From Octopus sinensis (lineage: Eukaryota), in NCBI RefSeq assembly GCF_006345805.1, contig NC_042997.1:10168001-10232000 (forward strand): DNA of 64,000 bases. Direction: 5' to 3'. The notes below the pieces were generated by a model that was not told the DNA's origin, searched no databases, and worked only from the letters and a program-made list of their open reading frames with translations. The position numbers were made by a program, and so were the translations under genes. Below, one piece after another: positions 11,292 through 27,750 of this stretch; position 1 is the first letter of the stretch; the number at the start of each line of letters is the position of its first letter.

Positions 11292-11951
11292 CACACACAC
11301 ACATATATACATATATATATATTGAGAGAGATCGATAAATATGTTAGATAGATAGATAAACCAAGGAAAGGTCAGTCGCACATGCACACACATGCGTTTT
11401 GAGAGCATGTAGGTGTATGTATATATATATATACCCGCAGTGGAGCAATCAAGAGAAAAGAAGTTCAATACGTAGGAGTATTTACGTTTTTGAATTGGCT
11501 GAGAAGTACCATAACTGACACAATAGTACTAATTTTCATGTATTTGAAGCTTCGCCTTTGCTAAACACGAGCTTGCAGTACACGACTCCTCAACGACCCG
11601 GTTATTTTAACAACATCTGCTGGCTCGTCTTTCCTCAAAGCTACTCCAAAACATATCGTAGAGAAAATTATACAACATAACCTTTAAAGAGTACTCCCAA
11701 ATTCCCCGCAAAACTTAAAACACATCACCAGCACTGTATCTTTCGACAAACAATCCCCTACAGGTATGCGCTAGGGTGTTGCAAAAATATAGCTTAAATA
11801 CCACTTGAATGACTTCATAAGGTGAGGCTATTTAATTAAGTATGCAAGCACTAATGCTGGTCAAAAGCTTTGTCTTGTGTGTGTGTGTGTGAATAATATA
11901 TACACTAAATCCTCGCCATATCGCGGTTCACCTATCGCGGTTTTTTATTTA

Positions 11952-12039
<88 letters not shown>

Positions 12040-12045
12040 TATATT

Positions 12046-12350
12046 AAATGGGGAAAGCCAGTTTATGGGATTACTTTAGGTTTCCCATCCATAAAGGGTT
12101 TAGCTTTATGGCGTATCGTCAGTTTTCCAAACCTGTTGGCCCAAGACCTCTTGAGAATAAGAATATTCTTATGAATATTCTTAAGAGGTCTTGAGCCAAT
12201 GGGTTTTAGGATCTGACGAGACACCATTATGTTAAACACTTTATGGATGGGAAACCTAAGGCAATCCCATAAACCGGCCTTCCCCATTTTTAATATATAC
12301 TGCTCTATATCTTAGAGTGTGCTTCTTCTATCGGATTTATGTTTTTTACG

Positions 12351-12355
<5 letters not shown>
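12046..12355. mobile_element. Palindromic element with a hammerhead ribozyme in each arm and a PLE-type 3' tail
   Basis: ~120-bp arms 12046-12165 / 12165-12289, about 80% identical; HHR on - strand 12067-12128 and on + strand 12209-12268; tail 12298-12341 resembles 919-958. Confidence 0.75.
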
Positions 12356-12418
<63 letters not shown>

Positions 12419-26422: not shown

Positions 26423-26454
26423 CGTAGATATAGATATATACATAGATTTAGATA

Positions 26455-26842
26455 AGGCTGGTTTATGGGATTACGTCCTAAAGAGGTTAGCTTTATAGCG
26501 TATCGTCAGATCCCAAACCTGTTGGCCTTTGGCCTCTCTAGAAAACGGTGAAGGAAAACACTTTGTTACAGTCAACGATAGGGGATAATCTCCCTTTGGC
26601 TGTCAATCGTATGATTTCCAGTAGGCAAGCATGGTCCGAAGTGCAAGCATGGTCCGAAGACTTCCGCTCTGGAGTTAAGGATGCTCCACGGGTTGAGGGT
26701 GTTCTTTACTAACAGGGAGCCACACGATGACAGGGTCATTTGCGACTGCTAGCCAAAGGGAGACAATCCCCTGTCGTTGACAGAGAAACGAAGTCTTTTC
26801 CTCCTTTATTTTGTAGAGAGGTCATAGGCCAACAGGTTTGGT
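26455..26842. mobile_element. Long fold-back member of the 12046 HHR family
   Basis: Arms 26513-26610 / 26743-26841; - strand HHR at 26460-26520 has lost GAAAC by deletion. Confidence 0.65.
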
Positions 26843-26939
26843 AACATCGTCCGTTTTCCGTCCCTGTGTTGTATACATTCGAGGCTTTCTTCCAAGGAAT
26901 CTAATGCGCTTGGCTTAGATTTCCCTTGGGGGTTGCCCA

Positions 26940-27090
26940 GATCGGAAAAAATCTCAAGATTAATCAGCCGAAATTGCGAAGATGATCCGGTTCTTGACTG
27001 ATGATTGAGGGCTTCGAATGTCCCGTCCGTGTTTTTTATGTCGTCTTCTAAATGTTTCACGTTATTGTCCCAGTTTGTATATTTTTTACT
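26940..27090 (+). mobile_element. Short TA-flanked repeat with GAAA...CTGATGA motifs
   Basis: Homologous to 36530-36654 (-). Confidence 0.55.
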
Positions 27091-27098
27091 TTTACATA

Positions 27099-27140
<42 letters not shown>

Positions 27141-27289
27141 TACATCAAGTGGCTGGAGGAGGTACGTGACGGGGACGTAAACACACCAACAATGATTGTG
27201 AAGCGGCGATGGGGAACACTCTCACACACACACATATATACGCATACATACAGGCTACGATGAATATATTATTGTCTAAATTAAGTGAC

Positions 27290-27750
27290 TTACTATAGAG
27301 GCCATTGGCCAACAGGTTTGGGATCTGGAAAGCTAGGCGCTTTATGGACGTGAAACCCAGAGTTACTCCATAAACCGGCCTATCTGACTTTATATAATAT
27401 CACACGGGGTCACGTGACCGACCAGACCATCAGATGTTGTTATACATCGCTGGTCACAATGCGTTCGCATTGTTTTATCCTTCGAATGACGCCACCCCGC
27501 TGGCTAAGCGAGCAAGCCAACAGAAGAAAGAGTGGGAGAAAGAGTACAGCAGGGATCACCACCCACTGCCGGAGCCTTGCGGAGCTTTTAAGTGTTTTCG
27601 CTCAATAAACACTCACAACGCCCGGCCTGGGAATCGAAACCGCGATCCTGCTGCCCTAACCACTGGGCCATTGCGGCTCCACTTATATAATATACTGCTC
27701 TATATCTTAAAGTGTGGTTCTCTTTCTGATTTATGCTTTACCGTCGATGT
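27290..27750 (+). mobile_element. HHR-family arm (12046 family) interrupted by SINE D
   Basis: GGCCAACAGGTTTGGGATCTG...GGACGTGAAAC at 27307-27375; tail TACTGCTCTATATCTT resumes at 27693. Confidence 0.65.
27401..27682 (-). mobile_element. SINE family D with 11-bp target-site duplication
   Basis: TTATATAATAT at 27390-27400 and 27683-27693. Confidence 0.85.

Follow-up and report, generated by a model that had tools for sequence, protein, structure and literature searches.

Within the 64,000-nucleotide stretch of Octopus sinensis DNA analyzed here (the window), positions 12038–12299 form an imperfect palindrome of ~250 bp flanked by two (TA)n runs (Table 1). Aligned with each other, the left and right arms are identical at 103 of 125 columns, and the region 12035–12300 folds as one rod (−159.6 kcal/mol, z = −20.2) whose stability was equaled by 0 of 200 shuffled sequences. 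The words of a hammerhead core read outward from the palindrome center in each arm: CUGACGA lies at 12213–12219 on the plus strand and at 12116–12122 on the minus strand, and GAAA at 12251–12254 (plus) and 12081–12084 (minus). The palindrome is asymmetric; the family tail (~55 nt) extends the right arm, and the left arm has no tail. Together with this tail, the right arm is 86% identical to positions 502–681 of the family reference. A 162-nt contig of run X19, which belongs to another study and is labeled as another organism, spans the center (12099–12260) with one difference. Because this independent run bridges the junction, an assembly artifact was rejected, and the palindrome of the original prediction does exist. 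At ≤2 mismatches, its center has a single match genome-wide. Contigs of run X1, guessed to be RNA, cover family-like arm sequence with 12161–12226 uncovered, and the unique left flank (11446–11863) is uncovered in X1, X4, and X5; neither result carries weight for or against expression.

Table 1. Features of the palindrome and of a second head-to-head insertion in the window
Feature	Position	Strand	Remarks
Left-flanking (TA)n microsatellite, probably the insertion target	11951–12045		Grades into the left-arm 3' end, which is AT-rich
Inverted tail-less copy of the element 3' end (pLTR), 5'-truncated	12038–12159	−	83% to family reference 503–629
Decayed type I hammerhead, left arm	12056–12141	−	Core and stem II preserved; stem I disrupted proximally; mismatch in stem III
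15-nt center between the arms	12160–12174		
Junction	12157–12174		12157–12172 is a perfect 16-nt palindrome of duplicated arm-start sequence; genome-unique; bridged by X19
Direct copy of the element 3' end (pLTR), 5'-truncated at the commonest family point	12175–12299	+	
Decayed type I hammerhead, right arm	12194–12279	+	GCA (12261–12263) for GUA; mismatches: two in stem II, one in stem I
PLE "tail" extension, right arm only	12300–12353	+	
(TA)n microsatellite, right flank	12354–12417		
Second head-to-head insertion (subfamily B): tail-less arm, hammerhead remnant, endonuclease gene end	26454–26708	−	
Direct arm of the 26454–27739 pair	26754–27739	+	Pieces 26754–26838 and 27283–27405 ("27310 copy"), tail 27679–27739

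The arms belong to an abundant repeat family. An exact 24-mer of the arm occurs 231 times in the genome (reversed control, 0), and a DNA search of the same genome (2.7 Gb) gave 2118 candidates, of which 40 were scored. In longer family copies, the sequence upstream of the arm encodes an endonuclease C terminus with YIG, CxxC, and CxH words, which we take to be endonuclease motifs. One family copy (L091) contains, in order, a reverse transcriptase (RT) with YRDD, a thumb, a four-Cys linker, an Asn/Ser/Thr-rich insert, the endonuclease, and the same arm. Its ORF is interrupted by stops and frameshifts, and the window copy itself is devoid of coding sequence. The N-terminal part of the L091 RT shows 34–44% identity to eight database proteins. 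In one of these, P0004 (735 aa), a single ORF has matches to the L091 RT core (E = 6e-31) as well as to its endonuclease (E = 5e-19), and the structure model of this protein (pLDDT 66.6, medium confidence) matches reverse transcriptases including telomerase (E = 2e-5 to 1e-3). In the Atlas, the endonuclease piece resembles GIY-YIG proteins (0.94) and the thumb piece HTH_animal clusters (0.96); the two named protein matches are gene models of Octopus bimaculoides. No Pfam family was matched by the family fragments or by five full-length relatives, and PDB sequence searches matched no solved structure; the domain names rest on the motifs, the Atlas look-alikes, and the medium-confidence fold (pLDDT 66.6). 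Because the longer copies carry an RT, a Cys linker, and a GIY-YIG endonuclease upstream of the same arm, we assign the arm, on sequence grounds, to the 3' end (pLTR) of an abundant endonuclease-positive (EN+) Penelope-like element (PLE). The parent element is probably Neptune-like. The spacing of the four-Cys linker between the RT and the endonuclease of L091 is not exactly the CX2-5CxxC given in the available part of PMC8557442. An upstream direct pLTR (partial tandem) is absent from L091 and from the other six extended loci.

Several features of the wider family were also observed. At L091:6480–7110, and likewise in L017, L062, and L073, the endonuclease is split by the long in-frame Asn/Ser/Thr-rich insert, which separates the linker-side strand from the YIG word; gene model P0001 comprises such an insert together with the endonuclease. 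Rotifer Penelopes also have Asn-rich inserts, at other positions, as described in excerpts of PMC3846280. Gene model P0002 starts with ~190 aa of the family PLE RT fused to a myotubularin-related C1/PH protein, and this fusion is probably a gene-prediction artifact. Right behind the L091 copy, the RT motifs at L091:8350–8640 belong to a second Penelope-like family that is more distantly related. In the window, positions 277–511 are an endonuclease-end remnant of the same family as the arms (63% to the reference), beside which no hammerhead was found.

The family hammerhead was examined in alignments of three subfamilies (48, 32, and 37 arms), from which matches that did not extend across the hammerhead (85% of the query) and L204, which overlaps L184, were excluded. 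CUGANGA, GAAA, and GUA appear in every majority line, with N7 variable. In a set of 35 selected arms, pairing holds in 87% of cells, and double changes occur at columns 22–76, 41–51, and 68–70; the compensatory changes are A-U to G-C in stem I and again in stem II, and U-A to C-G over the three-base stem III "loop." This support amounts to three inherited events, one per column pair, not dozens. Because the core is common to the three subfamilies and three compensatory pairs are present, the type I hammerhead of the family is judged to be genuine. The pair across the stem III "loop" cannot form intramolecularly, and its change preserves the stem III palindrome. Such retention would be expected of dimeric hammerheads as portrayed in excerpts of PMC4209133, and the hammerhead of the parent element is likely to work as a dimer or with protein help, given the palindromic stem III. 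At the base of stem II (alignment A2, columns 31–34 and 57–61), the family lacks the usual G-C pair; compared with the hammerheads in the available text of PMC4209133, the pair is A-U in subfamily B, and A/G or A/A, or U-G/U-A with a bulge, in A and C. The bulged A of stem II is shifted by one position in subfamily C, yet retained. Substitutions amount to 4.4% at core positions and 8.1% elsewhere in the hammerhead (A positions, 4.3% in both), a gap that plain neutral decay does not predict, with the 8.1% inflated by subfamily differences. Among 33 arms that were not picked via the 24-mer, 13 retain an intact core. None of the papers listed in literature searches dealt with the hammerhead of this family in octopus, and the family may already be catalogued in Repbase or Dfam. 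In a separate observation, one subfamily C arm (L192:2109–2900; G000:C4:134057679–134058480) contains approximately ten tandem partial hammerhead units of 62–67 nt that run from stem II to the 3' strand of stem I without CUGANGA; the array ends in the tail and looks like repeated RT slippage.

As to the two window copies, the original prediction of a type I hammerhead in each arm was right for the core words on both strands; both copies are damaged, as had been noted there, and neither folds as a hammerhead alone (z = 0.35 and −1.57), whereas stems I and II do form in well-kept family arms (z = −2.5 and −4.3). The mutations named there were confirmed, namely GCA for GUA in the right arm and the broken proximal stem I of the left arm, which also has a stem III mismatch. 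Both window hammerheads are predicted to be inactive because of the NUH rule and the stem requirements, which are violated by the GCA triplet and stem mismatches on the right and by the stem I and III damage on the left. In the whole predicted rod, the probability of being unpaired is 0–0.08 at CUGACGA and GAA on either strand; a read-through transcript of the window copy would thus form a rod with a fully paired core, in line with the suggestion that the rod hides the ribozyme. In Rfam searches, 0 of 15 matches at the palindrome was a hammerhead, nor was any found among the 150 listed of the 184 matches in the whole window; the listed matches of both searches were microsatellite-driven miRNA ones. 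The whole-window repeat search was likewise dominated by microsatellites.

The original prediction had proposed to judge the element by how often its family occurs as inverted pairs. We read 95 loci, drawn from 100 listed of the 231 exact 24-mer matches, with L036 excluded because it overlaps L035. Head-to-head (divergent) pairs were found at 46 loci and solo copies at 49 (30 tail-less and 19 tailed). Pairs are thus common; since each pair has two chances of being sampled, however, their estimated share is lowered to roughly one third of insertions, with about two thirds being solo. The first half of the refuting outcome named in the original prediction, a majority of solo arms, is thus borne out. 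The 46 pairs comprise 43 with one tailed and one tail-less arm, 3 with both arms tail-less, and 0 with both tailed; without one duplicate, the counts are 42, 3, and 0 (p = 4e-10 even against 50%). L009, a near-identical duplicate of L010, was left out of the counts of divergence, hammerhead span, microsatellites, and arm length. Subfamilies B and C also form pairs, at 13 of 25 and 14 of 24 best-score loci (L204 was excluded here as well because of its overlap with L184; 95 and 49 loci were read in total), and the partners belong to the same subfamily in 13 of 13 B pairs and in 12 of 14 first-listed C pairs. The hammerhead is spanned on both arms in 19 of 45 pairs, many partners are cut inside it, and arm lengths vary from about 60 to over 600 nt. 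Junction positions are distinct in 41 of 43 pairs, and the gap or overlap is ≤10 nt at 34 of 43 junctions. Because the junctions differ and the window center is unique, we conclude that every insertion creates its own fold-back and that the palindrome is not a mobile unit in its own right. A microsatellite abuts 37 of the 42 tail-less ends and 35 of the 42 tailed ends, and lies at both ends in 31 of 42 pairs, in a genome that is itself microsatellite-rich; a target duplication is unreadable inside (TA)n. The window contains a second pair at 26454–27739, the direct arm of which is split by other, later repeats. Among 141 arm 5' ends, 31 fall at reference positions 500–509, just upstream of the hammerhead, and this truncation hot spot (window 12175 and 12159) could be the transcript 5' end or a nick site of the element's own endonuclease.

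Here, we propose, with a probability of about 0.9, that the palindrome is a short, 5'-truncated, and decayed insertion of an EN+ PLE in (TA)n, with a mirror arm likely made by fold-back and with the hammerheads as passengers. Directly observed are the arm identity, the tail asymmetry, the unique junction, the independent decay of the arms, and the compensatory changes of the family hammerhead. In the first step, the GIY-YIG domain of the element would nick AT-rich DNA, and reverse transcription would begin at the tail and halt early. The cDNA may then fold back on a short self-complementary word and copy itself, and the returning strand would be anchored in the target at an AT-rich site ~60 nt short of the tail. 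The center was presumably trimmed or patched unevenly afterward. The 5' end position of one arm correlates with that of its partner (rho 0.51, permutation p = 3e-4), and both arms are long in 8 of the 9 pairs with a long arm, as compared with 1.7 expected. These correlated ends and the small gaps and overlaps favor copying of one arm from the other after folding of the cDNA; the template-switch-like origin in the original prediction is supported in this respect, and fold-back copying during integration is the moderately favored source of the mirror arm. Of 43 pairs, 15 have the longer arm on the tail-less side (by >30 nt in 9) and 18 on the tailed side; simple folding back of a tailed cDNA would yield the former only if the center was trimmed unevenly afterward. 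Such trimming is a known fate of palindromes. The 30 tail-less solo copies among the 95 loci show that the tail-less end can stand alone, which counts against the fold-back account. Of 11 loci examined for tail-less solo arms flanking long direct copies, only L043 was found, and it is already a pair.

The main competitor, a tentative one, keeps the same PLE and differs in the origin of the mirror arm. The protein, perhaps as a dimer, would nick both strands and prime two cDNAs, one at a tail site and one at a tail-less site, and these would be linked head to head afterward, so that the mirror arm is a second cDNA rather than a copy of the first. The strict pairing of one tailed with one tail-less arm is well explained in this way, and the mixed record of which arm is longer and the solo copies of both kinds also agree with it. 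In addition, the available part of PMC11167929 describes a Poseidon protein that cuts and extends both strands in vitro, with two RT start sites bounding the tail. Independent priming, however, predicts unrelated arm lengths, contrary to the correlation and the 8 of 9 long-arm pairs, and several junctions, read by eye, center on short self-complementary words. Under either fold-back or two-ended priming, the locus is a PLE insertion scar. A bolder and rather doubtful extension of the fold-back account is that it represents the normal second-strand route of the clade, every insertion starting at the tail, snapping back, and landing tail-less, with the solo copies as trimmed remains. If this were true, the 0 of 45 two-tail pairs and the correlated lengths would be a genome-scale footprint deciding between self-priming and two-ended priming, and the genome would hold hundreds of ready-made hairpins as a by-product.

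It is improbable that the scar was retained by the host as a hairpin for double-stranded RNA (A-to-I editing or small RNAs), with the arms kept alike by conversion or selection. The very stable predicted rod and the presence of the locus in run X19, labeled as another organism, would suit such a role, and PLE copies yield small RNAs in a rotifer, as noted in excerpts of PMC3846280. On the other hand, the window arms differ at 22 of 117 columns; each departs from the family majority at 14, and only 3 of these differences are shared. Across 45 pairs, arms within a pair differ by 14.7%, close to the 15.9% between loci, and the arm homogenization suggested originally was therefore rejected. Non-CpG variants are shared within pairs at 1.0%, versus 0.4% at random, an excess that fits a common source RNA followed by separate decay and supports the PLE insertion account. 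CpG sites are mutated at 32%, versus 8% elsewhere. Both window arms do share the GATGGGAAAC word, which had been taken as evidence of their origin; it carries no such weight. As a CpG transition of the subfamily word, this GATGGG variant recurs in 15 of 141 arms, and the comparison copy at 27310 is a member of subfamily B.

The distinct, self-propagating ambisense fold-back element of the original prediction (MITE-, retrozyme-, or viroid-like, copied whole with a ribozyme on each strand) is largely refuted and has next to no probability: the commonness of pairs, many with the hammerhead spanned on both arms, would agree with it, but the window center is unique, nearly all junctions are distinct, the two ends differ, many partner arms break off within the hammerhead, arm length is variable, both window hammerheads are damaged, and the arms are ends of a GIY-YIG PLE. 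MITE or fold-back DNA transposons resemble the window element in being short palindromic units in AT-rich targets. In contrast to them, the window family has no fixed length or center, its ends are asymmetric, and it originates from a retroelement 3' end; this identity was rejected because the unique center and the distinct junctions do not fit a unit multiplied with a common interior and constant inverted ends. The window element is similar to non-LTR retrozymes, as these are described in parts of PMC7229834 and bioRxiv 10.64898/2026.07.22.740005, in being small, non-coding, PLE-related, and equipped with a type I hammerhead. Retrozymes are head-to-tail tandems, whereas the window element is a single head-to-head unit without head-to-tail monomers, and a retrozyme tandem was rejected.

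The locus resembles known EN+ PLE units more closely. According to excerpts of PMC8557442, an inverted 5'-truncated copy, a tail at one end, and a bias to microsatellites are typical of PLEs, and the available text of PMC3846280 describes the inverted pLTR and the tail, along with junction palindromes that are interpreted as self-priming. As in the Penelope/Poseidon, Neptune, and Nematis units of these two sources, in so far as they are described there, the window copy has a head-to-head inverted copy, strong 5' truncation, a one-ended tail, a junction palindrome, and a (TA)n target, and the family ORF has a C-terminal GIY-YIG domain after the RT and an Asn-rich insert. Differences from the units in these excerpts are the longer tail of the octopus family (~55–60 nt as compared with 30–40) and the absence of coding sequence from the window copy. 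Hammerheads in PLE pLTRs, and dual motifs 100–700 bp apart on opposite strands related to truncated PLEs, appear in excerpts of PMC4209133. The octopus family shares with these hammerheads the CUGANGA/GAAA/GUA core, a long stem II, an extra base after A9, and a short, palindromic, dimer-suited stem III; relative to the minimal form in the same excerpts, its stem I is longer and bulged, and its stem III has 3 bp. The inverted pLTR, the one-ended tail, and the opposite-strand hammerheads are thus already published PLE features, as far as the available parts of PMC8557442, PMC3846280, and PMC4209133 go.

The window locus is an ordinary dead insertion with the usual PLE scar, not a new type of element. 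Its small value lies in being, like many other copies, a natural record of PLE integration, a process called unresolved in the accessible text of PMC8557442 and PMC11167929. One tail per pair, correlated arm lengths, and a truncation peak upstream of the hammerhead are simple constraints on the integration mechanism, and, at the sequence level, the compensatory change in the stem III palindrome supports a hammerhead that acts as a dimer in this family.
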